From Runella sp. (lineage in GTDB: Bacteria > Bacteroidota > Bacteroidia > Cytophagales > Spirosomataceae), in assembly GCA_044228585.1 (NCBI GenBank), contig JBGAUP010000001.1, positions 5,855 to 69,854 of the forward strand: a stretch of 64,000 nt of DNA, in the 5' to 3' direction. The translations under genes were made by a program, and so were the position numbers. The notes beneath the pieces were generated by a model, which was given only the letters and a program-made list of their open reading frames with translations, was not told the DNA's origin and did not search any database. This document shows, one piece after another, positions 13,609-53,287 of the stretch (its first letter is position 1; every line of letters begins with the position of its first letter).

Positions 13609-13614
13609 GAAAGG
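13587..13614. repeat. heptamer array, GTGANNA family (3-4 units)
   Basis: gtgagga gtgagga gtgagaa (13591-13611). It spans the last codons (VVRSEE) and the TGA stop (13606-13608) of the GT2 gene. Confidence 0.6.
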
Positions 13615-13656
13615 AGTTTATGACACGCAATTAACCATTCACGGATAACAGAAGCA

Positions 13657-15102: not shown

Positions 15103-15119
15103 ACCATCTGACGATACTA

Positions 15120-16838: not shown

Positions 16839-16872
16839 TTTTAGAGGTCTTTTTCCTAATTTTACCCTGAAT

Positions 16873-16907
16873 TTGTCACTCATTACTCATCACTTGTCAC
16901 TTGTCTT
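16873..16907. repeat. heptamer array, GTGANNA family on the opposite strand (5 units)
   Basis: ttgtcac tcattac tcatcac ttgtcac ttgtctt. The TTG start (16901) of the next GT2 lies in the last unit. Confidence 0.6.
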
Positions 16908-17887: not shown

Positions 17888-17943
17888 TTTTACATTTCCT
17901 GCTAAGTCCGTACGCTTTTACATTTTACATTTTTCGGTTTTAA
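17888..17943. repeat. weak heptamer-phased array (TTTTACA units)
   Basis: ttttaca at 17888, 17916 and 17923 (offsets are multiples of 7). The units between them are degenerate. Immediately upstream, the 3-prime end of the CDS holds a 16-nt direct duplication ccg(c/t)aaaacagaaaaa. Confidence 0.35.
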
Positions 17944-17948
17944 AAACC

Positions 17949-19400
17949 ATGCTATTCAATTCAGTTCAGTTTTTACTGTTTTTTATTGTCGTTACCCTTG
18001 CGTATTACAGCTTGCGTTGGAATATGCGTTGGCTATTGTTGCTATTGGCGAGTTGTTATTTTTACATGGTTTTCAAACCGATTTACATTCTAATTCTGTT
18101 TGCAACTATTGTTATTGATTACTTCGCTGGGCTTTGGATTGCTTCGGCTTCGGGAGCGCGACAAAAATGGCTTCTGGTACTGAGTATTATCACCAATGTA
18201 GGGATATTGGCCGTCTTCAAATACTTTGATTTTTTTGCCGAAAGCTTCAATGCCGTCAGTTGGAAAATGGGGATTGCCTGGAGTTTGCCCATTTTAAAAC
18301 ACCTAAATCCTGATTTGATTTTACCCATTGGCCTATCGTTTCACACCTTTCAGGCGATGAGCTATACCATTGAGGTATATCGTGGTAACCAAAAAGCCGA
18401 ATCCCATTTCGGGATTTATGCTTTGTACGTGATGTTTTATCCGCAGTTGGTAGCAGGGCCAATCGAACGTCCTCAGAATGTACTGCACCAATTCCACGAA
18501 AATCATCCGTATGACTGGGAAAACGTAAAGGCAGGACTCATGAGAATGGCGTTTGGCTTTTTCAAAAAAGCGGTCATTGCCGACCGACTTGCTTTGATGG
18601 CAGGGCCTGCTTATTTAGATCCTCAACACCATAATGGACTAACATTATTGGTGGCCACCTTTTTTTATACCTTCCGAATTTATTGCGATTTTTCGGGCTA
18701 TTCCGATATTGCTTTAGGTGCGGCGCAGGTGATGGGTTTCAAGTTGATGGAGAATTTTCGTACGCCTTATTTTTCTAAATCCATTTCGGAATTCTGGGGG
18801 CGCTGGCATATCTCGCTCTCTACTTGGTTTCGCGATTATTTATACATTTCACTGGGAGGAAACCGAGTGGGCGAAGGTAGGGCCTATTTCAATCGTTTTA
18901 CGGTGTTTTTGGTGAGTGGACTCTGGCACGGGGCCAGTTGGAATTTTATCATTTGGGGCGGCCTACACGGGCTTTATTTGGTAGCGGCTTCGGTGCGGGA
19001 TAAATACCTCAAACACTGGGATATCAGGCTGCCTCAAAGTGCTTGGTACGGTTATCTGCAAGTAGTCATCACGTTTTTGTTGGTGATGCTAACGTGGGTG
19101 TTTTTTGCCGTAGGCGACAATCCTAAACTGACCGTGGGTGAAGAAGTCAGAAGTTCATTTTTGATTCTGAATAAGATGGCACATTTGTCGCTGTCAGAGC
19201 CTATTCAGTCGGCACTCAATGTAGTGGAAATGTGGTTTTGTGTGGTGCTGATTGGGATTTTATTGGTGAAAGAACACTATGTCTTGCATATTCCTACAAC
19301 CAAAAATGCTACGTTTTGGATGTTGTTCCTTGCAATTTCCATAGCCAGTTATTTCTTTGGCGTTTTTGATTCTAATCAATTTATTTATTTTCAGTTTTAA
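17949..19400 (+). CDS. MBOAT family O-acyltransferase (AlgI/DltB-like)
   Basis: Polytopic, with the conserved His region WGRWHISLSTWFRDYLYISLGGNR and SGLWHGASWNF. Confidence 0.9.
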   Translation: MLFNSVQFLLFFIVVTLAYYSLRWNMRWLLLLLASCYFYMVFKPIYILILFATIVIDYFAGLWIASASGARQKWLLVLSIITNVGILAVFKYFDFFAESFNAVSWKMGIAWSLPILKHLNPDLILPIGLSFHTFQAMSYTIEVYRGNQKAESHFGIYALYVMFYPQLVAGPIERPQNVLHQFHENHPYDWENVKAGLMRMAFGFFKKAVIADRLALMAGPAYLDPQHHNGLTLLVATFFYTFRIYCDFSGYSDIALGAAQVMGFKLMENFRTPYFSKSISEFWGRWHISLSTWFRDYLYISLGGNRVGEGRAYFNRFTVFLVSGLWHGASWNFIIWGGLHGLYLVAASVRDKYLKHWDIRLPQSAWYGYLQVVITFLLVMLTWVFFAVGDNPKLTVGEEVRSSFLILNKMAHLSLSEPIQSALNVVEMWFCVVLIGILLVKEHYVLHIPTTKNATFWMLFLAISIASYFFGVFDSNQFIYFQF

Positions 19401-21024: not shown

Positions 21025-23871
21025 CTACCGGAAGTTCCGTAGTGTGTAGGTGAATGTCATCATATAGTATCGCTGCAAAACGCGGGTTTGGAGGTCTTCG
21101 ATGTAGGTTTCGGTCACAGTACGGCTGATACTATTATTTTGGCCTAATACGTCAAACGTGCTCAATTTTAGCTCTCCAGCTTTGTTTTTGAGGAACTTAT
21201 AACCAACCGCCGCATTCCAAAGAGTGAAGTTGAGGTTGAAATCTTGTCCTAAGCCCGTATAAAACGTGTGGTTGAGGTTGGTATTGACAAAGAATCCACT
21301 TTTGGTGACCCAATTGATTTTGAAGTTGCTGTTTTGAAAATAGTAGGTTCCGTCCAAAGCAGGTTGCAAGGTGTTTTTGACGGTGTTATAGTTCCCATTT
21401 AACGATAACGTAAAATCAACCTGCTCACTAATATTGCTACTCAAGACCAAACCACCAGTAATTGAATGGGTATTAGAGGTGTTTTGGACGTTGTTAATCA
21501 AACCAATCGTGCGGGTATAGCCCGTTCCTACATTGAAATTCAGATTGCTCTTGATGGCCGTAACGGGTAGTCCATACGTAATAAACGAGCGAACATTCCA
21601 GTTGCCATTCACGTTGACGGGCTGGCTAAACTGCGATCCTACTCTGAGTGGAAATCCCGCAACGATGGTGTCTTTGGTGGCGATAAACGTAGTATTGCTG
21701 ATGTTGTTTTGAGTAAACGAGCCATTCAGGTTGATAAAAAAGCTACGCGCTGTTTTGGCGTTGGTCACGCCGTAACGAATAAAAACACTTTGGTTGTACT
21801 CTTGTTTCAAGTTGGGGTTACCCGTCTTCAAAAACAGTGGATTGGAGTTGTCAACTACATTTTGCAGTTGGCTGATAGAAGGAGCATTAGTAGAAGTGCG
21901 GTAATTGATTCGTAAACTACTACCATCGGTACCTCGATACATTAACATAGCCGAAGGGAGGAGATTGTCGAAAGTGCGCTTGATTTCAAATTGGAGTGGG
22001 TAGTTTTGTTTTCCACTCAACTGTGCGTTCTGGTAATTTAGTTCTGCCGTTACCATTGTTTTTTTGATACGAAGGCGATAGCTACCTCCTACCCGGTTGG
22101 TGATGTAGGTATTATCAAACTCGTTGGAAAGGCGTAAATCAGGGGTGCTGTATTCGCTGGTGGACTGATTGTAGTTGTAAGTGTCTCGGTCAGAGTAGTT
22201 TTTGGTATAGGATGGCGTGTAATTCAACTGCAACTGACCAGTTCTTCCGATGTTCTCTGTGAATGAGATATTACTCGAAATTGTGTAGCCATTTGCTTTG
22301 GTATCGGTTTGTTGATCGGTTATTTGTAAAGAATCGGCAGTTTTACGGCCAAAATAGTTATTAATGGACTTTAATAGCGATTCACCTGTTCGGTTATTGG
22401 CCGAGGTGTTGAGCCCGACCGAGATAGTCCGTCCGATTTTTCCAAAACGATGTCGCCACAAGATGTTATTTCCCCAATTGTAACCATTGTTTTGCGATTC
22501 CCTATTGGTTTGGGTTCGGTTCAACAGGGACCATTCATAGGTTATTTGCTCCCAAAACAAACTGCTGTAAGCGGTATTGTCTTGAAAACTTAGTCGAGGT
22601 GTAATGATAATAGAGTTTTTGGTATTGATAGTGTATTCGAGGCGGGCGTTCAAACGGTGATTGTCGTTGTTGTTAGTAGAAGTAAAACCTTCATTATAAA
22701 GCTGTCCAGGGCCTTCGGTAGTGAAAAAAGTCCTTGCCAATGCGCTGGTATTTTCGTTTTTGGCGGCATTGAAAAAATAGCTACCGCTCACTTTCCATTT
22801 TTTGCCCCAATTGTCGGAATAATTGAGTCCAATGGCGTTGGTGCGGGTAATACCTCCTTGTTGGCCTGTCAAGAAGTTGCTGGCGTTGTTTCCCCCGCCG
22901 CCAAAATTTCCACCCCCACCTCCTTGGCCTCCGCCGCCACGATTACCTCCTTGGCCACCGCCACCACCACGAGTACCACCTTGACCCCCGCCGCCAGAAG
23001 ACCCCAATACGCCCAGCAAGTCTTCGTTTCCAAAGTTTTGCTGATTGATATTGTTGCTCATGCCAATGACCGAAATCCGTGTATCTTTCTTAAAATAGTT
23101 GGTACTTCCTCCTACCATGTAGCGATTGTCAGTACCATATCCCGCATATACTTTTCCAAATTGGCCATTGTTACGGTCAGAACGGGTGACGATGTTGATG
23201 GTTTTGGTCGTTTGTCCATCGTCGAAACCCGTAAACTGCGATTGGTCGCTGAGACGGTCAAAAACCTGAATTTTGTCAATCACTTCGGCGGGCATATTTC
23301 TTAGTGCCAGCGTGGCATCATCCCCGAAGAAATCACGGCCATCTACTGTTACTTTCTGAACATTTTCGCCTTGGGCTTTCACTTGACCGTTTTCAATGGT
23401 GATGTTGGGCATTTTTTCCAACAAATCTTGGGCATTGGCATCTTTATTCACCTTAAACGCGCTGGCGTTATAGACGGTGGTATCTCCCTTTTGCTCAACC
23501 CGCTCGGCTACTCCTTTTACTATCACATCTTTCAGCAATTGTGCGTCAGGCTTTAGTTGTATCTTTCCAAGGTCAGGATTTCCACGGCGGAGATTGATCC
23601 GCTGTTCGACAGATGTATAACCAATGAATGAGGTTATTAAGCGATAGCCTGCCACAGGAATATTTTTAAATATAAACGCACCAGACGTATCGGCTACCAC
23701 TCCAAAGCGTTTTATGGAGTCGGCACTGTTGATGAGAAGTACATTGGCTCCAATCAAGGCAGATTGGTCGTTGGCATCTACGACTCGACCTTTTACTTCC
23801 ACGTTTTGGGCAAATAGGAGGCCTGCCGATAGGAAGAAGAAGAATAGAAAATAGTAGCGTATGGGCTTCAT
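21025..23871 (-). CDS. outer-membrane beta-barrel protein (CarboxypepD_reg domain plus TonB-receptor-like barrel) with Gly-rich insert
   Basis: ORF 21025..23964; the likely start is ATG 23871 (MKPIRYYFLFFFFLSAGLLFAQ signal peptide). VKGRVVDANDQSALIGANV carboxypeptidase-regulatory-like domain. C-terminal aromatic residue (...LRNFR), long beta-strand-rich body. Gly-rich stretch GSSGGGGQGGTRGGGGGQGGNRGGGGQGGGGGNFGGGGNN. Confidence 0.8.
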   Translation of the reverse strand: MKPIRYYFLFFFFLSAGLLFAQNVEVKGRVVDANDQSALIGANVLLINSADSIKRFGVVADTSGAFIFKNIPVAGYRLITSFIGYTSVEQRINLRRGNPDLGKIQLKPDAQLLKDVIVKGVAERVEQKGDTTVYNASAFKVNKDANAQDLLEKMPNITIENGQVKAQGENVQKVTVDGRDFFGDDATLALRNMPAEVIDKIQVFDRLSDQSQFTGFDDGQTTKTINIVTRSDRNNGQFGKVYAGYGTDNRYMVGGSTNYFKKDTRISVIGMSNNINQQNFGNEDLLGVLGSSGGGGQGGTRGGGGGQGGNRGGGGQGGGGGNFGGGGNNASNFLTGQQGGITRTNAIGLNYSDNWGKKWKVSGSYFFNAAKNENTSALARTFFTTEGPGQLYNEGFTSTNNNDNHRLNARLEYTINTKNSIIITPRLSFQDNTAYSSLFWEQITYEWSLLNRTQTNRESQNNGYNWGNNILWRHRFGKIGRTISVGLNTSANNRTGESLLKSINNYFGRKTADSLQITDQQTDTKANGYTISSNISFTENIGRTGQLQLNYTPSYTKNYSDRDTYNYNQSTSEYSTPDLRLSNEFDNTYITNRVGGSYRLRIKKTMVTAELNYQNAQLSGKQNYPLQFEIKRTFDNLLPSAMLMYRGTDGSSLRINYRTSTNAPSISQLQNVVDNSNPLFLKTGNPNLKQEYNQSVFIRYGVTNAKTARSFFINLNGSFTQNNISNTTFIATKDTIVAGFPLRVGSQFSQPVNVNGNWNVRSFITYGLPVTAIKSNLNFNVGTGYTRTIGLINNVQNTSNTHSITGGLVLSSNISEQVDFTLSLNGNYNTVKNTLQPALDGTYYFQNSNFKINWVTKSGFFVNTNLNHTFYTGLGQDFNLNFTLWNAAVGYKFLKNKAGELKLSTFDVLGQNNSISRTVTETYIEDLQTRVLQRYYMMTFTYTLRNFR

Positions 23872-24059
23872 GGTGTATGGTTTTTCTCTATTTGAAAGAT
23901 AAAATAGCAAAAAGTTTAGCCTACTGATTTCAAAAAGCGATGAAATGGCATAGAACACCGACAATATACAGACTATTTACCGATAAAGATTACACTTAAA
24001 ATACAGGATTTGATTAGGTTTGGTTTTTCAAACACTTTTTATCAAAAATACTCCTATCT

Positions 24060-25662: not shown

Positions 25663-27042
25663 ATGAAAAAATCGCTTTCTTTGCCCCGTTTACTTTTTAC
25701 CCTTTTCACTTTCACCTTTACCTTTACCCTTTTCACTTCATCCACCCTTTCAGCCCAATACCCCATCCTTCCCGAACGGGAACGTGCTCGTGTAGTAGAT
25801 GAAATTTTAGAAGACCGTTTCACCAACCTTTTGCCTCAGCTTATGCGTCGTGAAGGGGTTGATATGTGGATTATCATCTCCCGCGAATACAACGAAGATC
25901 CCGTGATGCGTACCATGCTTCCCAGCACTTGGTTGTCGGCACGAAGACGGACAATTATGATGTTTTACGACGCAGGTGGGGCAAAACCGCTCGAAAAACT
26001 CGCCATTGCTCGCTACGACGTAGGAAATTTGCTCAAGGGAGAGTGGGATATCAATGTTCAACCTAATCAGTGGTTGGCATTGTCTAAAGTAATTGAAGAG
26101 CGTAACCCCAAAAAAATTGCGCTTAATTTCTCCAAAGATTACGGCCACGCTGACGGACTCACTTACACCGAACACAAGGAGTTTATGAGTGTGCTGCCCG
26201 AAAAACAAAAAGCGAAGATTGTCTCTGCCGACCGTTTGGCGGTGGCGTGGTTAGAAACCCGCAGTGAAAAAGAAGCGGCTATTTATCCCATGATTTGCCG
26301 TATTTCGCACGATATTATCCAAGAGGCATTTTCCGAAAAAGTAATTCACCCAGGCGTTACTACCACCGACGACGTGGTGTGGTGGATGCGCCAACGTGTT
26401 ACCGATTTAGGGTTAGAAACATGGTTTCATCCTACGGTGGACATTCAGCGCTTCGACCCTGAAAACTTTGATCATTTGCGCACTTTCTCCAAACGCCCTG
26501 CTAAGCAAGTCATTATGCCAGGGGATTTGCTTCACTGTGATTTTGGCATTACGTATTTGCGCCTCAACACCGACCAACAGCAAAATGCCTATGTATTGCG
26601 CCCCGGAGAAAGTGAAGTACCCGATTTTCTGAAAAAGGCTTTGGCCCAAGGCAATCGCCTGCAAGATATTCTTACTGAAAAATTTAAAACGGGTACGACA
26701 GGCAACAAGATGCTGTTGGAGGCACTTGAACAAGCTAAGAAAGAAGGGATTACGGGGAGTATCTACTCTCACCCCATTGGCGTACACGGCCACGCGGCAG
26801 GCCCGACGATTGGCATGTGGGACCAACAGCAGGGAGTAGCAGGGCCAGGCGACTATCCTTTGTTTCCCAATACGGCTTACTCGATTGAATTAAATGCCGC
26901 TGTCGAAATAGCCGAATGGAAGAAAACCATTCGTATTATGCTCGAAGAAGATGGCTATTACACGGCAGATGGCTTTCATTACTTAGATGGACGCCAAAAA
27001 GAGATTTTTACCATTCCTCGGAATTTGGAGAAAGTAAAATAA
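25663..27042 (+). CDS. M24 family metallopeptidase (Xaa-Pro aminopeptidase-like), secreted
   Basis: Signal peptide, then a creatinase/prolidase-like N-domain and a pita-bread domain (LLHCDFG, HPIGVHGHAAGP, SIELN..MLEED). Confidence 0.8.
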   Translation: MKKSLSLPRLLFTLFTFTFTFTLFTSSTLSAQYPILPERERARVVDEILEDRFTNLLPQLMRREGVDMWIIISREYNEDPVMRTMLPSTWLSARRRTIMMFYDAGGAKPLEKLAIARYDVGNLLKGEWDINVQPNQWLALSKVIEERNPKKIALNFSKDYGHADGLTYTEHKEFMSVLPEKQKAKIVSADRLAVAWLETRSEKEAAIYPMICRISHDIIQEAFSEKVIHPGVTTTDDVVWWMRQRVTDLGLETWFHPTVDIQRFDPENFDHLRTFSKRPAKQVIMPGDLLHCDFGITYLRLNTDQQQNAYVLRPGESEVPDFLKKALAQGNRLQDILTEKFKTGTTGNKMLLEALEQAKKEGITGSIYSHPIGVHGHAAGPTIGMWDQQQGVAGPGDYPLFPNTAYSIELNAAVEIAEWKKTIRIMLEEDGYYTADGFHYLDGRQKEIFTIPRNLEKVK

Positions 27043-33023: not shown

Positions 33024-33103
33024 AGTCCACAGTCTTATAGGTATAGATAATATCTTGACTGTGGGCGGCAAACTGTGGGCTATGGACTGCCAACTTTTGA
33101 CTA
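33024..33103. repeat. heptamer array, NNGACTG family, with an inverted left arm
   Basis: agtccacagtc (33024-33034) is inverted relative to gactgtgggcg (33057-33067). Units ttgactg tgggcgg caaactg tgggcta tggactg ccaactt ttgacta (33055-33103). Located just after the apbC stop. Confidence 0.6.
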
Positions 33104-33145
33104 TAAACCCAAAAAAACGCATATTAGCGGATTAATTCATAAGAA

Positions 33146-34605: not shown

Positions 34606-35130
34606 TTACCGTATCCAGTCTCGCAGCAATCCTTTGTGGTCGTTTTGGAGAAGAAGCTCAAATAAACGAACCGTGGCGGCAGCATCGCCCATGGCGCGGT
34701 GTTGATTGGTGTGTTGGATTTGCAAATCTCGGCAGATGTTGCCCAAACTGTATGACTTATAGCCAGGAAAAATCTTGCGGCTTAGTTTCACCGTACAGAG
34801 GGTATCTCGGTTGAAATAGGTATCGAGTCTGCCAAATTCTCGTTTTACAAAACCGTAGTCAAACGTGACGTTGTGCGCTACAAATGCAGCATCGTAGGTC
34901 ATGCGGTGTACTTCATCGGCGATTTCTTCAAAAGTAGGGGCATCTTTCACCATTTGATTGTCAATACCCGTGAGTTGAGTAATAAAATTCGGTATCCAGC
35001 ACTGCGGATTGACTAAACTTTGGTAAGCATCCACTACTTGCCTTCCGTCGTGGCGGACAATGGCGATTTCGGTAATGCGGCTTGTAGCGTGTGTTCCGCC
35101 CGTGGTTTCAATATCAACAATTGCAAACAT
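34606..35130 (-). CDS. DnaQ-like 3-prime to 5-prime exonuclease domain protein
   Basis: ORF 34606..35217; the likely start is ATG 35130 (MFAIVDIETTGG, ExoI motif). FVAHNVTFDYGF (ExoII) and HRAMGDAAAT (ExoIII). Confidence 0.8.
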   Translation of the reverse strand: MFAIVDIETTGGTHATSRITEIAIVRHDGRQVVDAYQSLVNPQCWIPNFITQLTGIDNQMVKDAPTFEEIADEVHRMTYDAAFVAHNVTFDYGFVKREFGRLDTYFNRDTLCTVKLSRKIFPGYKSYSLGNICRDLQIQHTNQHRAMGDAAATVRLFELLLQNDHKGLLRDWIR

Positions 35131-35247
35131 AAAGAAGTAACTATTTCGCAAAATACGGGAAAAAACCCGATACGATACGGGAAATTTCCCGTTGTTCCGC
35201 ACTTCCCAATCACGCATTTTTGCAGGGTACTTTACAAACCCTCCATC

Positions 35248-35598
35248 ATGACAACGCTTGAACTTACTCAGATGCCCAATGGCTTAGTGGGTATTCGATT
35301 GCCGATACTCACAGACAAAGTGTTCGTTCCTTTAAATGAGATTATTCGTCTCGAAGGTCAGCGAAATTACACACTTTTTGTTCTAAATAGTGGCAAAAAA
35401 ATCTTGGTAGCCAAAACCCTGCGACTTTTTGATGAGCTATTTCCCTCTACTTTTGTGAGAGTCAGCCGTGGCTGTATTATCAATATGTCTTTCCTTATTT
35501 CGTTAAAAGAAGGAAAGTTTCTCCTAAAAGACGGTTTTGAAATACCGATTTCACGAAGGAGAATAAAGCATTTTGAAGCAGTTCGACAAGCTGCTTAG
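35248..35598 (+). CDS. stand-alone LytTR DNA-binding domain protein (no receiver domain)
   Basis: ORF 35020..35598, with the likely ATG at 35248. LytTR signature IIRLEGQRNYTLFVL...TLRLFDELFPSTFVRVSRGCIIN. 116 aa. Confidence 0.7.
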   Translation: MTTLELTQMPNGLVGIRLPILTDKVFVPLNEIIRLEGQRNYTLFVLNSGKKILVAKTLRLFDELFPSTFVRVSRGCIINMSFLISLKEGKFLLKDGFEIPISRRRIKHFEAVRQAA

Positions 35599-35602
35599 GT
35601 CG

Positions 35603-38600
35603 TCAACGCCCACAAATCTCCCGAAAATCACAGTATTGGCAAGCTGTAAGATGGTCGGTTTTACGGAAAGGTTCATCAGGATTAAGTAGGGTGTCAACAA
35701 TAAAACGTTGAAGGTATTTTTCGGAATTTACCACGTATGATTCGGCATCCGAGTTTTCGTCAAAACGCAGGGGATTGTTAACAAAACCTTTTTTGATGTT
35801 TCGTAAAGAATAAAAACCTGACGTTACTTCGTAGTTGTCTAAATGAAATTCTCGACCTCGCAGGCGGAGGCCACGTTCGCGTAGCATTTGTTTGTAAATT
35901 AAATACTGGTACAGCCACAACTGCCTGATTTTCTCATGGTTGGAGTTGTTTCCTGAAGTCATAATACCCTCCAACTTTTCGGGGGTTACTTTGGGGAGCT
36001 GTTCTATTTTTCCCGTTTTGTAGTCGGCTACGCGAATCGTATTGTCCAATAATTCTACACGATCAATTTTACCAGCTATTTTTACCATCAACACTTCATT
36101 CCCCAGTGGCACGGCTACGGTAGCCGTTAGTTTTTGCTCGGTAGCCAATACGACCAATCCATCGTTGCGCTTGTGTTGTTCTTGCAGAAAATCCACGACC
36201 GTTTGTTCCGCGACTTGGTACAACAAACGGTTGATGCCTGAATCGGCATCGTAACCTCTAAACATCTTTTCAAATTCTTCGCGGAGAATTACCTTCACTT
36301 GCTCATCGCTAATGGGTTTGTTTTCCATTAAATACTCAATATCAATGCGTTCGAGTACTTTGTGAATCCATGAGCCAAAATCAGCGGCTCCCATGCGCTC
36401 TTCTACTTCCTCGTCTTCGGCAACCCCTGCCACCCGACTAAAATAGTATTGAAGCGAGCATTTTAAATATTGGTTCAGGTGGGTAGCATACAAACCGTCT
36501 TTGGTTAATATTCCCCGCAAAAAATCTAAGATTTCGGGTGTTTTGGGTACTGTCCAATCGCTTATGGAGGCGTGTTTTTGGTTTAGAGTTTCGGGTTTGG
36601 CGTTTACTGTTTCGGGTTTACTATTTACAGTTTCGAGCTGACTGTTGACTGTTGACTGTTGACTGCTAACCGTGGACTGTGGACTGCCAACTGCCGACTG
36701 CTGACTCTCCTGAAACATGACTACGTGTTCCGTAAACTGGATATTTCCGTTTGATTTCGGGACAAGTTCGTGTTCTAATTGTAAAATAAAGCGACTTTTT
36801 TCTCCGCCGTTGTAAGTGTTTGGGTCGGTGACATAAACGAGGTGAACTTCGTGGGCGCGTTGGAGCAAGCGATAAAAATGGTACGACATCACCGCGTTTT
36901 GGTCACTATATACGGGCAAACCCGCTTCGCGGGCTATGTCCCACGGAATGAGCGAGTTTTGACGTTTGGTACTTGGAAAAACTCCTTCATTCATCGAAAG
37001 AATTATGACACGCTCGAAATCCAAAGCGCGGGTTTCGAGCATCCCGATGATTTGTAACGGGCTGACGGGTTCGCCACTAAAAGGAATGCGCGTTTGGCGG
37101 ATAAGCTCGTACAAAAACGCCTTGAAAGTGCGAAGATTGAGTTTTTCGATGTGTTCGTTGCTCAGGGTAGTTTCGAGTTGTTTGAGCAGGGTATAAAACA
37201 GATACAAATACTCGGTTTCAATGGCATTTTGGGTATCTTTATATACTTCTCGCAACAAGTCAATGAGTTGGTAAAGCACCTTGATAACCGAGTGTGGATG
37301 GTCGTCCCAACGGGTAAAAAGGGTTTTGAAAAGGGGGTGATTCTCGCCCCACTCAAACAGCTGTTTTGGATCAAGATAGACGAGATTGCGTTGCTGTATT
37401 TCTCGAATGGTAGTTTGAATAATACTGGACGCCGTGCTGTCGCGGTGTTGTAATTCCAAAAATTCATATCGTCGAATGAAGGGATGGTTCAACACTTTTT
37501 GAACCGTTCGGTGGTTGAACTTAGGAATTTTTAGGTTACGTCCGTCTTTGGCGCGAAACTCTGCCATCGTAAACTGGAGTTCAAATAAAGAGTCAACCAG
37601 CGTGAATAACAGTGAATTACGGAGGGTAAGCCCCATGGTTACGTTCAAATCCGTGATGGCTTCATCCAAGCCATTGAGCATGGGTACGAGCAAATTTTCG
37701 TCGGCCAGTACAATACCTACGGGGCGTTTTTCGGTACCGCCTTGCCCTTCATCGCACCATTGGCGATAAAGTTCACCCGCTACTTTGGCTTGCATAGAGG
37801 CATTAGGAACAGCATACACGTGAATATCTTTGGGGGTGTCCAGCAAATGATTTTCAGTCCATTTCCACTCGCCCGACCAAGCGGCATCGCGGTATTTGCG
37901 CAAGGATTTTCCGCCTTCGGCCAGCGGGTTTTCGCGCATGTAATAAAAATCACTATCCCATAGAATTTCGGCGCATTTGGCCTTGATAAGGGTTTTGATA
38001 ATGGTTTCTTCGGCCAATGTTAGCGCATTAAAACCAATGAAATAGTAGTGAGTAGTGAGGGGTGAGGAGTGGGGAGGTGTATCTTCTGCCGATTGCTGAT
38101 TGCCGATTGCCGATTGCTGATTGCCGATTGCCGACTGCCGACTGTCAACTGCCGACTGTGGACTGTTAAGCAAAAGCTCAAACGCATTTTCGGCCAAAGT
38201 CCGATAGGCCATACCACGATAGGCGCGGTGCCGAGATTGAAGGTCTTCCCTAAAAAGCCGATATACTTCTCGTAGATTGGCGAATAGTTCAAAATATCCT
38301 TTGAGGCGTTCGGAGTCGGTGGTCATTCGACTTTTGGGCCAGTCAATTTGCCAGCGTTCAATCGCTTTGGCTTCGGTGATATAGTTGAAAAGATAATCAG
38401 GGTCAATCAGGTACTGGTCAATTTGGTCAATATCACGCAACAGCATCGTTCCCCACTGCAAATAGCGGTCGAAAGTGATGTTTTTATCCACTTTTTTGAA
38501 GATGTCGTATAACTCAAATAGTAAACTAACATTATCCGAAATTTCCACTTGGCATCTTTGGGCTACAAAATCATCAATAGCCACTACTTCAGGCGCTAAA

Positions 38601-38752
38601 AAAGGGCGGTCAGCGCACTGCGCTAAGGCTCGCTTAAAGAAATAACCAGCGCGTCGAGTAGGGAGAACAATACATAGTTTGTCAAGTGATTGAAGGTCTG
38701 GATATTTATCAAAAATATACCGTGCCGATTTTTCTAAGAATGACTCAAGCAT
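35603..38752 (-). CDS. PD-(D/E)XK nuclease family protein, AddB/RecB-exonuclease-like, with two repeat-encoded inserts
   Basis: 1049 aa. The C-terminal nuclease core has RVADYKTGK and a Cys cluster (...TACQYCDFREICGR). Two low-complexity segments are encoded by heptamer arrays. Confidence 0.75.
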   Translation of the reverse strand: MLESFLEKSARYIFDKYPDLQSLDKLCIVLPTRRAGYFFKRALAQCADRPFLAPEVVAIDDFVAQRCQVEISDNVSLLFELYDIFKKVDKNITFDRYLQWGTMLLRDIDQIDQYLIDPDYLFNYITEAKAIERWQIDWPKSRMTTDSERLKGYFELFANLREVYRLFREDLQSRHRAYRGMAYRTLAENAFELLLNSPQSAVDSRQSAIGNQQSAIGNQQSAEDTPPHSSPLTTHYYFIGFNALTLAEETIIKTLIKAKCAEILWDSDFYYMRENPLAEGGKSLRKYRDAAWSGEWKWTENHLLDTPKDIHVYAVPNASMQAKVAGELYRQWCDEGQGGTEKRPVGIVLADENLLVPMLNGLDEAITDLNVTMGLTLRNSLLFTLVDSLFELQFTMAEFRAKDGRNLKIPKFNHRTVQKVLNHPFIRRYEFLELQHRDSTASSIIQTTIREIQQRNLVYLDPKQLFEWGENHPLFKTLFTRWDDHPHSVIKVLYQLIDLLREVYKDTQNAIETEYLYLFYTLLKQLETTLSNEHIEKLNLRTFKAFLYELIRQTRIPFSGEPVSPLQIIGMLETRALDFERVIILSMNEGVFPSTKRQNSLIPWDIAREAGLPVYSDQNAVMSYHFYRLLQRAHEVHLVYVTDPNTYNGGEKSRFILQLEHELVPKSNGNIQFTEHVVMFQESQQSAVGSPQSTVSSQQSTVNSQLETVNSKPETVNAKPETLNQKHASISDWTVPKTPEILDFLRGILTKDGLYATHLNQYLKCSLQYYFSRVAGVAEDEEVEERMGAADFGSWIHKVLERIDIEYLMENKPISDEQVKVILREEFEKMFRGYDADSGINRLLYQVAEQTVVDFLQEQHKRNDGLVVLATEQKLTATVAVPLGNEVLMVKIAGKIDRVELLDNTIRVADYKTGKIEQLPKVTPEKLEGIMTSGNNSNHEKIRQLWLYQYLIYKQMLRERGLRLRGREFHLDNYEVTSGFYSLRNIKKGFVNNPLRFDENSDAESYVVNSEKYLQRFIVDTLLNPDEPFRKTDHLTACQYCDFREICGR
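36581..36707. repeat. heptamer tandem array inside the CDS: GTTTNNN x8 then NNGACTG x10
   Basis: gtttaga gtttcgg gtttggc gtttact gtttcgg gtttact atttaca gtttcga (36581-36636). Then ctgactg ttgactg ttgactg ttgactg ctaaccg tggactg tggactg ccaactg ccgactg ctgactc (36638-36707). On the coding strand, 36641-36665 reads CAGT(CAACAGT)3. Confidence 0.85.
38042..38169. repeat. heptamer tandem arrays inside the CDS: GTGANNA x5 then NNGAYTG-family x12
   Basis: aatagta gtgagta gtgaggg gtgagga gtgggga (38042-38076). Then ctgccga ttgctga ttgccga ttgccga ttgctga ttgccga ttgccga ctgccga ctgtcaa ctgccga ctgtgga ctgttaa (38086-38169, 84 nt). This includes a perfect 21-nt duplication at 38093-38134. Confidence 0.85.
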
Positions 38753-38906
38753 ATAAAATCGCTTTTTTTTAATTCTTTTTGAGGTGGGGTTTATCTATAC
38801 TTTTTTTACTTTTCGTCGCTAAATTTCACAATTATAGCCATTATTCCTGCTTTTGTTCTTTTTTTTTGGTGCGAAACTTTAATCGTTTTTTAATTTCGCG
38901 GCAACA

Positions 38907-38933
38907 TTTAGTAAAAATTATTGTTTTACTAAA
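38907..38933. promoter_or_regulatory. perfect 10-bp inverted repeat TTTAGTAAAA-N7-TTTTACTAAA upstream of susC
   Basis: tttagtaaaa (38907-38916) and ttttactaaa (38924-38933) are exact reverse complements, 48 nt upstream of the SusC ATG. Same core as the motif repeated in 3146-3561. Confidence 0.4.
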
Positions 38934-38980
38934 AAAAGTAACAACACCATTTTGTTCAACTAAAAACCAAACTAAATCTC

Positions 38981-49879: not shown

Positions 49880-50491
49880 TTATAGGTCAATTTTGGGTAG
49901 CGATAAGCGGTACTTGACGGCAATTAGTCGGACAATAATAATCAATAATACGCATCCAAAGCTTATCCATTGGGTATGAATGTCGTAATAATCCAACAAT
50001 ACAAATACCACCGCGCCAGCCATGCAAGCCGTAGCGTAAATCTCTTTTTGAAAAATAAGCGGTAGTTCATTGATAAGCGTGTCTCGAATCACTCCCCCAA
50101 ACACTGCCGATACCATGCCCAGAATAATGGCCGCAAAGGGATTAACCCCGTTTTGAAGTGATTTTTGGACGCCAAGTATGGTATAAACCCCAATCCCAAC
50201 GGTATCCAACAAAAAAATGATTTTATGAAGGCGAAGAATCACCCGCTTAAACAAGACCGTAATGATGACTCCTAAAGTGATAAAAATGAGGTAATTCATG
50301 TCTTTTACCCACGCCAAAGGATAGACACCGAGGGTTACATCGCGGAGGGTTCCTCCCCCAATAGCCGTAATAAAGCCCGTAAAGAATACCCCAAATAGGT
50401 CTTGGTACATTTTTTTATCGGAAGCAGCCAAGGCTCCTGATATGGCAAAGACCAAAACGCCAATCATATCAATAGAATAAGGTAAGGACAT
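49880..50491 (-). CDS. trimeric intracellular cation channel-like membrane protein (UPF0126/YadS family)
   Basis: ORF 49880..50521, with the likely ATG at 50491. Two UPF0126 repeats (VFAISGALAA...GGGTLRD and VSAVFGGVIRD). Confidence 0.8.
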   Translation of the reverse strand: MSLPYSIDMIGVLVFAISGALAASDKKMYQDLFGVFFTGFITAIGGGTLRDVTLGVYPLAWVKDMNYLIFITLGVIITVLFKRVILRLHKIIFLLDTVGIGVYTILGVQKSLQNGVNPFAAIILGMVSAVFGGVIRDTLINELPLIFQKEIYATACMAGAVVFVLLDYYDIHTQWISFGCVLLIIIVRLIAVKYRLSLPKIDL

Positions 50492-50662
50492 ATTTTTTGG
50501 TAGAAATGTACTTAAATACAAAGTAACGAGAAAGGCGAATGAGAAACCAATTTTTACTTTTCATCAATTATTTTTTACTCTTCATGCAACCTTTCCCGTT
50601 GAATTGACATCTTATTCCTGAATTTAGCAGCATGAAAACAAAATCAGCAATCCAATAGTAGG

Positions 50663-50726
50663 CAGTTTGCAGTCGGCAGCAGGCAGTGAGTATTACTGTA
50701 AACTGTGGACTGCAGACTGACAACTT
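50663..50726. repeat. head-to-head heptamer arrays (CAGTNNN x4, spacer, NNNNACT(G) x4)
   Basis: cagtttg cagtcgg cagcagg cagtgag | tattact | then taaactg tggactg cagactg acaactt. Located in the divergent promoter region between the UPF0126 gene and the OM beta-barrel gene. Confidence 0.65.
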
Positions 50727-50842: not shown

Positions 50843-53287
50843 ATGAAAACTTTTATTAGTGTTGCGACAGCTATGCTGTTGTTGTGTTCTTCTGCATTTG
50901 CGCAGTCTTCTCTCAAGGGAAAAGTATCGGGTGAAGTTCAAGAAAAATCTGCAAAACCCCTTCCATTTGCTACGGTTCTGTTGCTTCATGCCAAAGACTC
51001 AACTTTGGCCAAAGGAGCCATTTCGAGTGAAACAGGGCATTATGAATTTGAAAATGTGGCGCTTGGACGTTATTTGGTTTCAGCTACCATGATAGGCTAC
51101 CAAAAAGCCTTTTCAGCTCCCTTTGACATCAATGAAAGTCAAACCCTGCTGACAGTCCCTGCGCTACAAGTGGCCGAAAATACCCAAACGCTCCAAGAAG
51201 TAAAAGTAGTGACCAAAAAGCCGTTTGTAGAACAACAGATTGACCGTATGGTGGTCAACGTTGAAAACAACATTGGCTCGGCGGGCGGTACGGCCTTGGA
51301 GGTGTTGGAAAAAGCACCAGGTGTGACCGTTGACCGTCAAAACGACCGTCTCCAATTCAAAGGTCGTCAGGGCGTGATGATAATGCTTGACGGGAAATTG
51401 CAACAAATTTCGATGCAAGACCTGATGAATATGCTGCAAGCTATGCCCAGCGACAACGTCGAGAAAATTGAATTGATTTCCAATCCCCCCGCCAAATATG
51501 ATGCCGCAGGCAATACGGGACTCATCAACATCGTACTAAAGAAAAACAAAAACTTTGGAACAAACGGTAATTACACGCTCGGAGCAGGTTACGGACGATA
51601 TGAAAAACTTAACGGTTCATTAGGTCTTAACTACCGCAACGCCAAATACAACGCTTTTGGTAACGTAAGCCTTTTTCACGCGCGTTTTCAGAATACCCAA
51701 GACATTGACCGTACCATTGCTTACAAAGACCAAATTACCTATATGGACCAAAATAGTCCGAGGGTAGGCAATCCCCAAAATTTAAGTTTCCGTGGTGGAG
51801 TGGACTTTTTTGTAAGTAAAAAAACAACAATTGGGGTATTGGCTACTGGTTTTGTGAACCAGTTCAAGATGAAAGGAATTTCAAGCACCGATTTTCGAGA
51901 CAAGACCCAAACTTTGACCAGTAGTTTTGAAACGGATGCCCGTAATCATAATCGCCTAAATAACTACACTGGGAATATCAACTTAAAACATGATTTTGGG
52001 AAAGGCCGTGAATTAACTGCTGATGCCGATTATTCGTACTTTGATGGAAATTCGGGTAATGACCTCAATACTACTTATTATAGCCCCACTAATGTCGTGA
52101 CGAGCAAGGAAGTTTTTCGGAACATCATGCCCTCGACTATCAGCATTGCGGGTGCAAAAGTTGACTATATCCACCCCCTTAAAAAAGGTAAACTTGAAGT
52201 AGGAGCGAAAAGTAGCTTCGTAAATTCGGATAATAATATGCGTTTTGAAACCCAAATTGACAATCAGTGGGTTTTGGATCCATCTCGCTCTAATCACTTC
52301 ATTTACAAGGAGAATATCAACGCTGCTTACACTAATTATAGTACGAAACTCAACAAAAAAACGCAACTTCAATTAGGATTACGTGCCGAACACACCCATT
52401 CGGAAGGTAATTCGGTGACGTTGAATAACATCGTTGATCGCAACTACGTCAATTTGTTCCCCAGTGTATTTGTGTCGCGGACGTTAGATACCAATAACGT
52501 TTTGAATGTGTCGTTTAGTCGCCGTATTGACCGCCCAAATTACCGTAATTTGAACCCATTCCAGTTCTTTTTAGATCCCTATACTTTCCAACAGGGAAAT
52601 CCCAATTTGCGTCCTCAATTTACCAACTCGTTTCAGATTACGCACGTTTTCAAAGGAGCTTTTTCGACTACCTTGGGTTACAGCCGTATCAACGACGTGA
52701 TTGCTGACCAGATTCCAAAACAGATTCCTGAGGAAAACAAAACGTACGTGACTACCGAAAACCTTGACCACCAAGACAATTATAACTTGACGTTGAGCAT
52801 TCCGATTCCTATCAAGAAATGGTGGACAATGCAAAACAACATCAGTGCGTTTTACAACCGTTACCGCTCATTCTACTACGGGGCTGACTTGGATTTGGGG
52901 CAGTTTGGAGCAACCGTGTTTATGATGAACAACTTCACTCTTCCCAAGGGCTACACGGCTGAGTTGAGTGGCTTCTGGAATTCACCTACGCAGTACAACA
53001 TTCTCAGAGCGCAAGCACAGGGACAAATCAGCGCAGGTTTTGCCAAGTCGTTATGGAATCGTAAAGCATCTTTGCGTCTAAATGTTCAGGACATCTTTTT
53101 CTTGAATCGCTTTGCAGGAACTGTTAAATATCAAGATTTAAACTTCCGCGTGATGTCGCGTTGGGAGAGCCGTCAGGTACGCTTGTCGTTTACGTATCGC
53201 TTTGGAAATCAGAATGTAAAGGCCGCCCGTCAGCGGAGTACAAGTACCGAAGATGTACGTAATCGGGCTAATTCAGGACAAAATTAA
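50843..53287 (+). CDS. outer-membrane beta-barrel protein (CarboxypepD_reg plus OMP_b-brl_3-like), paralogous in architecture to 21025-23871
   Basis: Signal peptide, LKGKVSGEV...ATVLLL regulatory-like domain, plug-like region (VEKIELISNPPAKYDAAGNTGLINIVLKK), long barrel. 814 aa. Confidence 0.8.
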   Translation: MKTFISVATAMLLLCSSAFAQSSLKGKVSGEVQEKSAKPLPFATVLLLHAKDSTLAKGAISSETGHYEFENVALGRYLVSATMIGYQKAFSAPFDINESQTLLTVPALQVAENTQTLQEVKVVTKKPFVEQQIDRMVVNVENNIGSAGGTALEVLEKAPGVTVDRQNDRLQFKGRQGVMIMLDGKLQQISMQDLMNMLQAMPSDNVEKIELISNPPAKYDAAGNTGLINIVLKKNKNFGTNGNYTLGAGYGRYEKLNGSLGLNYRNAKYNAFGNVSLFHARFQNTQDIDRTIAYKDQITYMDQNSPRVGNPQNLSFRGGVDFFVSKKTTIGVLATGFVNQFKMKGISSTDFRDKTQTLTSSFETDARNHNRLNNYTGNINLKHDFGKGRELTADADYSYFDGNSGNDLNTTYYSPTNVVTSKEVFRNIMPSTISIAGAKVDYIHPLKKGKLEVGAKSSFVNSDNNMRFETQIDNQWVLDPSRSNHFIYKENINAAYTNYSTKLNKKTQLQLGLRAEHTHSEGNSVTLNNIVDRNYVNLFPSVFVSRTLDTNNVLNVSFSRRIDRPNYRNLNPFQFFLDPYTFQQGNPNLRPQFTNSFQITHVFKGAFSTTLGYSRINDVIADQIPKQIPEENKTYVTTENLDHQDNYNLTLSIPIPIKKWWTMQNNISAFYNRYRSFYYGADLDLGQFGATVFMMNNFTLPKGYTAELSGFWNSPTQYNILRAQAQGQISAGFAKSLWNRKASLRLNVQDIFFLNRFAGTVKYQDLNFRVMSRWESRQVRLSFTYRFGNQNVKAARQRSTSTEDVRNRANSGQN

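Follow-up and report, generated by a model that had tools for sequence, protein, structure and literature searches.

In-frame heptanucleotide repeat arrays at two variable sites of an AddB-like nuclease gene in Runella

The stretch of Runella DNA analysed here (64 kb in full, hereafter the window) contains an intact open reading frame on the reverse strand, 35603-38752, which encodes an AddB-like PD-(D/E)XK nuclease of 1049 aa and holds two arrays of 7-nt tandem repeats. The host belongs to the Cytophagales and its nearest relatives are all Runella or Spirosomataceae, in agreement with the Bacteroidota gene content that a first-pass annotation had read from the letters. The AddB-like call made in that annotation is borne out by both fold and domain: residues 756-1047 match Pfam PDDEXK_1 (PF12705, E 2e-30), and the five best Foldseek matches in the PDB are AddB chains (E 2e-17 to 7e-17, ~1200 aligned columns), with 4cej_B and 3u4q_B of B. 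subtilis AddAB at the top (E about 1e-17) and RecC, RecB and AdnA ranking after the AddB chains. This ranking fits the AddB architecture of N-terminal inactivated SF1-helicase-like domains followed by a nuclease domain; a sequence-profile search against the PDB returned 0 matches. Across 42 orthologues the nuclease motif (GKIDR, containing D897, and D910-Y-K912) is invariant, as are four cysteines (C765, C1038, C1041 and C1047) that match the Fe-S staple pattern C...CxxCx5C, the CxxCx5C spacing being that of B. subtilis AddB. AddB is the nuclease subunit of AddAB, and its partner AddA, a UvrD-type helicase-nuclease, is usually encoded adjacent. None of the large ORFs of the window was found to encode a UvrD-type helicase that could serve as AddA candidate; the genes next to the AddB-like gene encode a SusC-like receptor, a LytTR protein and a DEDDh exonuclease.

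The array noticed first, here called site 2, occupies 36581-36707, and re-reading the letters and the ORF confirmed that its 127 nt hold 18 heptamers (8 + 10, plus 1 spacer base) in frame inside the 1049-aa ORF. On the forward strand, 36581-36636 reads GTTTAGA, GTTTCGG, GTTTGGC, GTTTACT, GTTTCGG, GTTTACT, ATTTACA and GTTTCGA, followed by a spacer G at 36637 and, over 36638-36707, by CTGACTG, three copies of TTGACTG, CTAACCG, two copies of TGGACTG, CCAACTG, CCGACTG and CTGACTC. Read on the reverse, coding strand, the block falls into two sub-arrays one base (36637) apart. Sub-array A (36638-36707) has ten CAGTNNN-type units, GAGTCAG, CAGTCGG, CAGTTGG, CAGTCCA twice, CGGTTAG, CAGTCAA three times and CAGTCAG, and encodes ESQQSAVGSPQSTVSSQQSTVNSQ; sub-array B (36581-36636) has eight NNNAAAC-type units, TCGAAAC, TGTAAAT, AGTAAAC, CCGAAAC, AGTAAAC, GCCAAAC, CCGAAAC and TCTAAAC, and encodes LETVNSKPETVNAKPETLN. 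The coding-strand peptide of the whole block, in frame within ORF 35603-38752, is FQESQQSAVGSPQSTVSSQQSTVNSQLETVNSKPETVNAKPETLNQK. The exact (CAACAGT)3 claimed for the coding strand at 36641-36665 is present there, the letters being CAGT-CAACAGT-CAACAGT-CAACAGT, which can equally be read as an exact (CAGTCAA)3, the rotated form of CAACAGT. Identity at a lag of 7 nt is 0.69 in the site 2 array as against 0.28 over the whole gene. Sub-array B is of a PETVN type that is found at the site 2 position also in the relatives L014-L019 and L001 and in the R. limosa clade.

A second array in the same ORF, as strong as that at site 2 and absent from the first-pass annotation, lies at 38043-38165 (site 1); it encodes NSPQSAVDSRQSAIGNQQSAIGNQQSAEDTPPHSSPLTTH and its lag-7 identity is 0.75. 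On the coding strand, sub-array A (38082-38165) comprises twelve CAGT/CAAT-core units, CAGTCCA, CAGTCGG, CAGTTGA, CAGTCGG twice, CAATCGG, CAATCAG, CAATCGG, CAATCGG, CAATCAG, CAATCGG and CAGAAGA, and includes a perfect 21-nt tandem duplication of (CAATCGG CAATCAG CAATCGG), 38089-38130, which encodes SAIGNQQ twice. This duplication is a three-unit, frame-neutral step in the lineage of the window. Sub-array B (38043-38076, same strand) consists of the CACT-core units CCCCACT, CCTCACC, CCTCACT and ACTCACT and encodes PPHSSPLTTH. The arrays fall at codons ~196-235 and ~683-728 of 1049, that is 19% and 65% into the ORF.

Because the unit is 7 nt long, all three frames of each unit are used, and a length change is neutral only if it comes in 21-nt steps. 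A CAGTCAA repeat reads QSTVNSQ in all three frames, and its opposite strand, TTGACTG, contains TGA; likewise the CCTCACT orientation is open and the opposite AGTGAGG contains TGA. The ORF is uninterrupted in 24 of the 25 assembled orthologous loci, L012 being the exception, and no frameshift was located in an array in these 25. Since the DNA period of the arrays is 7, not 3 or 21, the repeat arises at the DNA level and the 7-aa period of the peptide is a by-product.

Heptamer arrays are not confined to the AddB-like gene. An inverted pair of CAGTNNN arrays lies between genes at 50656-50726, which places this unit family outside genes as well; as RNA, the pair forms a predicted hairpin of -36.7 kcal/mol (z -4.4). 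Four arrays on the forward strand stand at successive gene junctions in a cluster at 12652-19400: (AGTGAGG)3 at 13590-13609 and an ACAGTAA/AAACNNN array at 15082-15104, which overlap the stop codons of a GT2 gene and a DUF6056 gene respectively; a TCACTNN array at 16876-16905, in the junction preceding a GT2 gene at 16901; and a (TTTTACA)2.6 array at 17916-17933, 16 nt upstream of the start of an MBOAT gene. A degenerate NNGACTG array with a 21-nt super-period occupies a convergent intergenic region at 33055-33104 (forward strand), and a further heptamer array is recorded as 25696-38. Altogether the window has about 10 period-7 clusters in its 64 kb, about 7 of them outside the AddB-like gene and either intergenic or at gene ends. 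A periodicity scan of the 64-kb window, with a threshold of at least 32 matches in 42, returned 59 scan windows at period 7 and 0 at any period that is not a multiple of 7; TRF likewise reports period 7 with 79-89% matches (head-to-tail heptamers), and CAGTNNNCAGTNNNCAGT with up to 1 mismatch has 18 matches against 0.15 expected. Among tandem repeats in 282 kb of Runella DNA, those of period 7 are the most frequent (57 of 117 clusters). In the small sample of flanking DNA compared, array density showed no difference between array-bearing and array-free Runella lineages. Long internal arrays in other genes were not found in ~145 kb of sampled non-AddB sequence. That the AddB-like gene alone holds two long arrays in the sampled DNA could hint at something specific.

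Comparison of orthologues limits the inserts to the Runella clade. Site 1 measures 11 residues in Dyadobacter, Spirosoma, Telluribacter and other genera versus 9-74 in Runella-clade orthologues, and site 2 measures 11-15 versus 17-87; the arrays stand where other genera have no insert. Within the clade, inserts are present at both sites across a depth of about 60-86% aa identity, add anything from about 0 to over 70 residues, and share no conserved residue or peptide; in the sub-clade of P0013, P0014 and P0017, site 1 has 13 residues against 11 in the outgroups, which is near the baseline. In the AlphaFold2 model pLDDT drops below 50 at residues 198-231 (site 1) and 681-731 (site 2), with block means of about 29-35 and flanks of 69-94, and these are the sole two long, insert-specific segments of very low confidence. 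Site 1 is modelled as a loop at the surface of the N-terminal helicase-like region (residues ~198-231), and site 2 is predicted to be an interdomain linker (residues ~681-731) just upstream of the nuclease domain, where PDDEXK_1 begins at 756. Independent invasion of these loops in other genera was considered and rejected: the longer Dyadobacter-like and Spirosoma proteins gained their length at other loops.

Differences between near-identical alleles reveal how the arrays change. At site 1, L014 has (CAGTCGG)6 and L015 has (CAGTCGG)3; at site 2 the same two alleles differ by one additional 21-nt block, CTCGAAACAGCAAACCCTAAA. P0004 and P0121 differ in length by 7 aa. These 21-nt differences, together with the 21-nt duplication in the window, bear out the earlier proposal that only three-unit steps are neutral, and every length difference between the near-identical alleles compared keeps the frame. 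In seven protein groups, each with at least 91% identical alignment columns, all internal indels fall at site 1 or site 2, the sole other length difference being a start-codon call. Lineages that lack live arrays keep nearly the same length throughout (992 aa in the R. zeae cluster and 1004-1005 aa in the R. rosea cluster, fragments and one alternative start aside), whereas array-bearing clusters vary. Identical units in a row number at most 3 in the window and reach 5-6 in some relatives. Of the outcomes that the first-pass annotation proposed to look for, the insert is absent outside the Runella clade and length-variable within it, and its length does not always change by a multiple of 21 nt: there are steps of 6, 12, 10, 5 and 2 aa too, so that some process besides simple heptamer slippage must be at work. 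Some units at the locus are themselves in frame, with lengths of 15 or 30 nt. Within a lineage, sites 1 and 2 share units and small nested elements; in L021 the composite inserts of the two sites are colinear over ~145 nt, and within the ~280 kb sampled the element GGCGGYGTTCCRCYC is restricted to the arrays of these two sites, being present in both.

Several apparent anomalies were set aside. The truncated 797-aa protein P0127, a candidate OFF frameshift, is really the product of a 100-N scaffold gap at the site 1 array, seen in two ENA scaffolds; the assembly is broken at the repeats in scaffolds L027 and L028. L012, a candidate phase variant, comes from a MAG and has 6 in-frame stops; its frameshifts are several, compensating and away from the site 1 array, and suggest either a faulty assembly or a pseudogene. 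A structured RNA element was also rejected, the mRNA fold over the arrays giving z-scores of -1.4 and +0.7, with no Rfam match.

Some assemblies do break at such repeats, as L027 and L028 illustrate, but the chance that the array is itself an assembly or sequencing artefact (a collapsed or chimeric repeat) is close to negligible: it is made of distinguishable variant units over only 127 nt, it keeps the reading frame, and homologous arrays with variants of their own occur at both codon positions in more than 10 independent JGI, ENA, Logan and NCBI assemblies. The slipped-strand on/off switch entertained in the first-pass annotation would be a contingency locus in which one- or two-unit changes reversibly inactivate the AddB-like nuclease in part of the population, which might relax the degradation of incoming linear DNA. 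Copy number does differ between strains, slips of one or two units are bound to happen and would give null alleles, and some relatives have perfect tracts able to slip, such as (CAGTCGG)6 in L014. The 100-N gaps, which fall exactly at the site 1 array in the two ENA scaffolds, are compatible with copy-number heterogeneity but are equally explained by failure of short-read assembly on repeats. However, the arrays of the window are degenerate, with no more than 3 identical consecutive units, they are placed 19% and 65% into a 3.1-kb ORF and not at a promoter or 5' end, 24 of 25 assembled alleles are in frame (L012 probably being an assembly error or pseudogene), and all the allele differences seen preserve the frame; a switch is therefore not supported, and we regard it as very unlikely.

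Selection for a disordered linker, also proposed at first pass, would mean that Runella needs longer S/Q/T-rich (Q-linker-like) tethers for which heptamer DNA is the raw material, and such a tether might let the nuclease domain swing. Site 2 directly precedes the nuclease domain, RecB has a long tether at the equivalent place, inserts have been kept at both sites over a clade of about 60-86% aa identity, and the PETVN-type sub-array is common to distant members. Against this, insert length spans about an 8-fold range at site 1 and about a 5-fold range at site 2, P0013, P0014 and P0017 are back to near-baseline at site 1, the inserts contain zero conserved residues, and sister genera function without them. 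Moreover, identity at 7 nt (0.69-0.75) is about equal to or above that at 21 nt, as expected of DNA-level turnover, and a 7-nt DNA period cannot come from selection on the peptide. Selected linkers are thus not supported and seem to us unlikely. A broader proposal, to which we give a very low probability, is that the CAGT-core arrays of Runella, filamentous cyanobacteria and Beggiatoaceae do not come from generic slippage but are made or maintained by a shared, possibly horizontally transferred sequence-specific activity, with the AddB-like gene, alone in its load of two exchanging arrays, as its target or tunable element; the arrays might then modulate end resection, through a heritable length or on/off state, or might bind a factor that recognises heptamers and works at the intercistronic arrays of the 12652-19400 operon as well.

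Taken together, these observations make it probable that the arrays are STRR-like heptanucleotide microsatellites which turn over through slippage and through exchange from one site to the other, and of which selection retains only the in-frame, stop-free forms in a tolerant loop and a tolerant linker. Of the readings in the first-pass annotation, that of a repeat family surviving as in-frame insertions in tolerant loops is the one well supported, the inserts being clade-limited, of low pLDDT, hypervariable and altered in 21-nt steps. The arrays would have become established at two positions of the AddB-like protein in the ancestor of the Runella clade. Allele comparison suggests that they have since grown and shrunk by slipped-strand mispairing and that sites 1 and 2 swap sequence by ectopic gene conversion, with selection presumably purging all variants that shift the frame or bring in a stop, arrays in the orientation that contains stops among them. 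The resulting S/Q/T/V/P/G-rich peptide may be a tolerated spacer with no specific function, and the arrays, on balance, a mutational liability that the gene has survived and not a device.

The arrays offer a clean natural example of a repeat with a non-multiple-of-three unit persisting for a long time inside a conserved enzyme, in disordered loops and in the stop-free orientation only, by way of steps of 21 nt or of units that are in frame because they measure 15 or 30 nt. They extend STRR/TAACTGA-type heptamers to Runella and add to the unexplained spread of such repeats over cyanobacteria, Beggiatoaceae and Bacteroidota. Because arrays of this kind split short-read scaffolds and yield mis-called truncated proteins, annotators should expect such errors. 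Sites 1 and 2 may serve as ready strain-typing markers and as permissive insertion points for engineering AddB-like proteins; knowledge of recombination enzymes as such is unchanged by the arrays.

The closest counterparts are the STRR heptanucleotides of heterocystous and filamentous cyanobacteria, reportedly described by Mazel et al. in 1990 as CCCCAGT, TTGGTCA and CAACAGT; Vioque is said to have placed STRRs in 1997 inside a functional gene, that for RNase P RNA, at a variable region. The CAACAGT of the window we take to be the STRR3 unit, which is indirectly supported by QSTVNSQ, the peptide of (CAGTCAA)n, turning up repeatedly in short ORFs from Calothrix, Nostoc, Microcoleus and Tychonema. 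The Runella arrays appear to share a unit family with the cyanobacterial STRRs, a CAGT core with three variable bases, and CACT-core and AAAC-core arrays occur alongside. The likeness covers tandem 7-nt units, an exact (CAACAGT)3 at this locus, a CAGT core common to STRR1 and STRR3, and a placement that is mostly intergenic, in Runella as judged from the window; STRR inverted arrays form hairpins (PMC2670836), as inverted arrays are predicted to do in Runella at 50656-50726. Unlike the hosts of STRRs, Runella belongs to the Bacteroidota and is not a heterocystous or filamentous cyanobacterium, and its arrays are heterogeneous (CAGTNNN) where STRRs are long and pure, most units in the window being other CAGTNNN, CAATNNN, CACTNNN or AAACNNN variants and not CAACAGT. 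Since STRR and Runella units are both simple repeats, identical units do not prove common descent.

Direct repeats of the heptamer TAACTGA have been described in Beggiatoaceae, cyanobacteria and five Bacteroidetes (MacGregor 2015, PMC4679880), where some arrays also lie within ORFs, encoding the periphery of proteins or, in an RpoC-like protein, a loop at the surface (PMC4679880). The Runella AddB-like locus adds a clear but fairly ordinary case to heptamer arrays already known in ORFs and in Bacteroidetes (MacGregor 2015). The statement in the first-pass annotation that no description of such arrays existed holds for Runella and for AddB in the library searched, which yielded no paper that connects Runella to heptanucleotide repeats, but not for heptamer arrays within ORFs or in Bacteroidetes, both of which are in PMC4679880. 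In both systems the heptamers have an ACTG/CAGT core, are mostly intergenic, often lie just ahead of start codons or over stop codons (in Runella at 13590, 15082, 16876 and 17916) and are kept out of ORFs in the stop-containing orientation. The units differ, however, and Runella is not among the taxa of PMC4679880; the TAACTGA arrays within ORFs have 2-3 units, whereas those of Runella have 17-18, deep inside a conserved enzyme, and have been followed across a clade with their copy-number steps.

Heptanucleotides are the most abundant class of long simple repeats in most prokaryotic genomes (Mrazek 2007, as relayed in PMC4679880), and they are likewise the commonest in 282 kb of Runella DNA. 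For LSSR of 5-11 nt, slippage has been proposed, and coding DNA should seldom contain those whose unit length is not divisible by 3 (Mrazek, Guo & Shah 2007, as relayed in PMC4679880 and PMC4692102); the AddB-like locus is a rare in-ORF case that persists via three-unit steps and 15- or 30-nt in-frame units. Phase-variable heptanucleotide repeats are reported in the HMW1A promoter of Haemophilus influenzae (PMC8262952). Copy number differs between strains there as in Runella, but phase-variable loci are long perfect tracts at the promoter or 5' end of surface-protein genes with demonstrated ON/OFF states, none of which is seen in Runella. In Borg elements, DNA tandem repeats in ORFs make intrinsically disordered regions (PMC9879509). 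In Runella, too, fast-evolving in-ORF tandem repeats yield new disordered protein segments. Borg in-ORF units are reported to be multiples of 3 nt, whereas the Runella unit is 7 nt and its neutral steps are those of 21 nt alone.

The array at 36581-36707 in the AddB-like gene (site 2, residues ~681-731) is laid out as the first-pass annotation described it, with eight GTTTNNN units, one spacer base and ten NNGACTG units on the + strand, that is, CAGTNNN x10 followed by NNNAAAC x8 on the coding (minus) strand. As claimed, it is translated in frame within the 1049-aa ORF 35603-38752 (-), giving the peptide ESQQSAVGSPQSTVSSQQSTVNSQLETVNSKPETVNAKPETLN, and 36641-36665 reads CAGT(CAACAGT)3. Lag-7 identity is 0.69 inside the array versus 0.28 gene-wide, and, with at most one mismatch allowed, CAGTNNNCAGTNNNCAGT is found 18 times where 0.15 would be expected. 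That observation is extended by a second array of equal quality in the same ORF, overlooked at first reading, at 38043-38165 (site 1, residues ~198-231). It comprises 12 CAGT/CAAT-core units and then CACT-core units, encodes NSPQSAVDSRQSAIGNQQSAIGNQQSAEDTPPHSSPLTTH, and includes a perfect 21-nt tandem duplication at 38089-38130 (CAATCGG CAATCAG CAATCGG, twice). Across the whole 64-kb window, at least 32 of 42 matches are reached only by period 7 and its multiples (59 passing windows for period 7, 0 for each other non-multiple period), and base-shuffled controls gave 0 arrays at the threshold applied. Chance is far too weak to account for the heptamer periodicity.

Within the arrays, identity is 0.69-0.75 at lag 7 and about equal or lower at lag 21 (0.64-0.72), while lags 3, 6 and 9 remain at background (0.14-0.35). 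Because 7 and 3 have no common factor, successive heptamer units fall in each of the three frames in turn: CAGTCGG yields QSAVGSR and CAGTCAA yields QSTVNSQ. The 7-aa pseudo-period previously attributed to the 7-nt unit is thus a by-product of a repeat that originated at the DNA level rather than the peptide level. In the AddB-like gene the units are read in their stop-free orientation. TGA is present in both TTGACTG and AGTGAGG; the arrays at 13590 and 15082 have the stop-containing form, and each overlaps the stop codon of the preceding gene.

The only Pfam domain recognized in the host protein is PDDEXK_1, at the C-terminus (residues 756-1047). From 42 orthologues an AlphaFold2 model was built (mean pLDDT 75.8), which has AddB chains of B. 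subtilis AddAB as its top 5 PDB matches (E ~1e-17), followed by RecC, RecB and AdnA. C765, C1038, C1041, C1047, D897 and D910-Y-K912 are invariant among the 42 orthologues, a pattern consistent with the Fe-S cluster and the nuclease motif of AddB. The name 'AddB-like' is justified by these fold matches together with the invariant cysteine and nuclease residues. Close relatives all belong to Runella or Spirosomataceae, Cytophagales, the best match to a named genome having 84% amino acid identity. No AddA-like helicase gene was found within the 64-kb window, nor any AddA-type helicase gene near the AddB-like gene. Downstream, at 34606-35598, lie an opposite-strand LytTR-domain gene and a DEDDh (RNase T/epsilon-like) exonuclease gene, a neighbourhood kept in most relatives' loci examined (L014, L015, L016, L018), with the LytTR gene elsewhere in L017 and L019. 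In several relatives the promoter region between the SusC-like and AddB-like genes carries a conserved ~21-22-nt tandem repeat (TTACAAAAAGTTGCTCACGAAA, ~2.3 copies; L011 170-219, L014 9815-9864, L015 7194-7243, L019 18-67), which TRF did not detect in the matching window region 38753-38980.

The two inserts coincide with long, very-low-confidence segments of the model, 198-231 and 681-731, where block means of pLDDT are ~29-35 as against 69-94 in the flanks; the remaining low-confidence stretches span 6-23 residues, in regions also covered by the orthologue consensus. Site 1 is placed between helix 190-195 and strand 235-239 of the helicase-like part, and site 2 is an interdomain linker, since it ends ~25 residues before the nuclease domain.

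In the alignment of the 42 orthologues, site 1 spans 11 residues in the outgroup genera (Dyadobacter, Telluribacter, Spirosoma and others) and 9-74 in Runella-clade proteins; site 2 spans 11-15 and 17-87, respectively. The Runella-clade residues form low-complexity sequence that cannot be aligned. On a neighbour-joining tree with both sites left out, the inserts grow inside the Runella clade, and site 1 is near baseline again in a nested sub-clade (P0013/P0014/P0017). Longer proteins in other genera were considered as cases of independent invasion of these two loops and rejected, being lengthened at other loops. A two-part layout is common to the core clade (CAGT-type then CACT-type units at site 1; CAGT-type then AAAC-type, the PETVN peptide, at site 2), which argues for old arrays that have been turning over rather than for repeated fresh invasions.

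Site-by-site comparison of relatives' DNA captures this length change between near-identical alleles from two JGI metagenomes (L014 and L015), which differ by (CAGTCGG)6 versus (CAGTCGG)3 at site 1 and by one additional 21-nt block of 3 AAAC-type units at site 2. In seven protein groups in which at least 91% of alignment columns are identical, all internal indels fall within site 1 or site 2; three are of 7 aa, and further steps are of 2, 6, 10, 11, 12, 20 and 29 aa. The P0009 cluster has 5-aa (QSADA) steps of 15 nt and the R. limosa clade a 30-nt repeat (VLDTSFVDER), both multiples of three. Of the outcomes that the first-pass annotation envisaged for such alignments, absence of the insert (in the outgroup genera) and variable length are found; steps always in multiples of 21 nt are not. 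Array-bearing clusters vary in length; it is essentially constant in clusters without live arrays (R. zeae, 992 aa throughout; R. rosea, 1004-1005 aa, fragments and one alternative start call aside). The ORF is uninterrupted in 24 of 25 loci. The exception, L012 (MAG ABC1.30), aligns over its full length with 62% identity and has six in-frame stops from several compensating frameshifts at 4495-5060, away from its site-1 array; it is probably an indel-rich assembly or a pseudogene. A 797-aa, N-terminally truncated 'allele' (P0127) was dismissed, being what the gene caller makes of a scaffold interrupted by 100 N at the site-1 array. Such gaps lie exactly there in two ENA metagenome scaffolds (L027 ~3800-3900; L028 ~1040-1140): heptamer arrays break short-read assemblies.

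The two sites also share sequence. In L021 their entire composite inserts are colinear paralogues over ~145 nt (870-1010 versus 2330-2480), with the common order (CAGTCGG)3-4, palindrome, CAAGACN array, GC-rich motif. Several lineages have a 15-nt element, GGCGGYGTTCCRCYC, embedded in the arrays of both sites; a GC palindrome, GCAGCGGCGGCYGCTCAC, is embedded at site 1. Neither was found elsewhere in ~280 kb. Nested elements were observed inside the AddB-like gene in L001, L014, L015, L018 and L023 as well. Ectopic gene conversion between the two arrays, or very small nested mobile repeats, probably explain this sharing.

Three readings had been offered for the site-2 array. That of a repeat invading ORFs and surviving only in frame, in tolerant loops, is supported by the low model confidence of the inserts and by the intact frame at all loci but one. 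A slipped-strand on/off switch is not supported, since the arrays in this window have degenerate units and occupy mid-gene positions, and no out-of-frame allele was found among the 25 loci. The mRNA has no unusual structure across the arrays (z -1.4 and +0.7), and Rfam and tRNA scans gave no matches. Selection for a disordered linker is not supported either, given a peptide period that follows from the DNA repeat. Read as in-frame survivors, the AddB-gene arrays make a tidy evolutionary case; what remains odd is why a single gene should hold two arrays exchanging sequence, and why CAGT-core heptamers recur across such distant phyla.

Arrays of the same unit families also lie outside the AddB-like gene. 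Five same-strand genes at 12652-19400 (GT2, DUF6056, an unknown 572-aa protein, GT2, MBOAT) have their own array in each of the four junctions: 13590-13609 (AGTGAGG), 15082-15104 (ACAGTAA/AAACNNN), 16876-16905 (TCACTNN) and 17916-17933 (TTTTACA). Two of the four overlap the stop codon of the preceding gene; all four either run into the next start codon or stop no more than ~50 nt short of it. Another array lies at 33055-33104. At 50656-50726, between divergent genes 49880-50521(-) and 50843-53287(+), an inverted pair of CAGTNNN arrays is predicted to form a hairpin as RNA (-36.7 kcal/mol; z -4.4; equally stable shuffles 0/200). Elsewhere, a 6-7-nt array (CTTTTCA/CCTTTAC) at 25696-25738 encodes the predicted signal-peptide hydrophobic core of an M24-peptidase-like protein (MKKSLSLPRLLFTLFTFTFTFTLFTSS...), and a ~30-nt-period repeat (2.8 copies) occupies 22918-22996 within a 979-aa outer-membrane beta-barrel gene, 21025-23964(-).

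We found no paper on heptamer repeats in Runella. The peptides encoded by (CAGTCGG)5 and (CAGTCAA)5, used together as a protein query, retrieved 158 proteins, most of them short hypothetical ORFs from Calothrix, Nostoc, Microcoleus, Tychonema and Komarekiella; a few come from Bacteroidota (a Cytophagales MAG, Paraflavitalea, Flavobacteriaceae, Balneolales), and a few are real domains whose linker holds the array, such as a lipoyl domain with AVGSQQS repeats after it. These matches support the proposed link to the short tandemly repeated repetitive (STRR) heptanucleotides of cyanobacteria as far as unit sequence goes; simple repeats cannot demonstrate common descent. According to Mrazek 2007, as relayed in PMC4679880, heptanucleotides outnumber every other class of long simple repeat in most prokaryotic genomes, and GGGAATC and GGGGAYT heptamers occur in Xanthomonas and Nostoc (PMC4692102). 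TAACTGA repeats, present in Beggiatoaceae, cyanobacteria and five Bacteroidetes, lie mostly over stop codons or upstream of start codons, the few inside ORFs encoding peripheral parts of proteins or a surface loop (PMC4679880). The junction arrays of 12652-19400 resemble the TAACTGA arrays found close to start codons in Beggiatoaceae (PMC4679880), and the predicted 50656-50726 hairpin resembles the STRR hairpins reported for cyanobacteria (PMC2670836).
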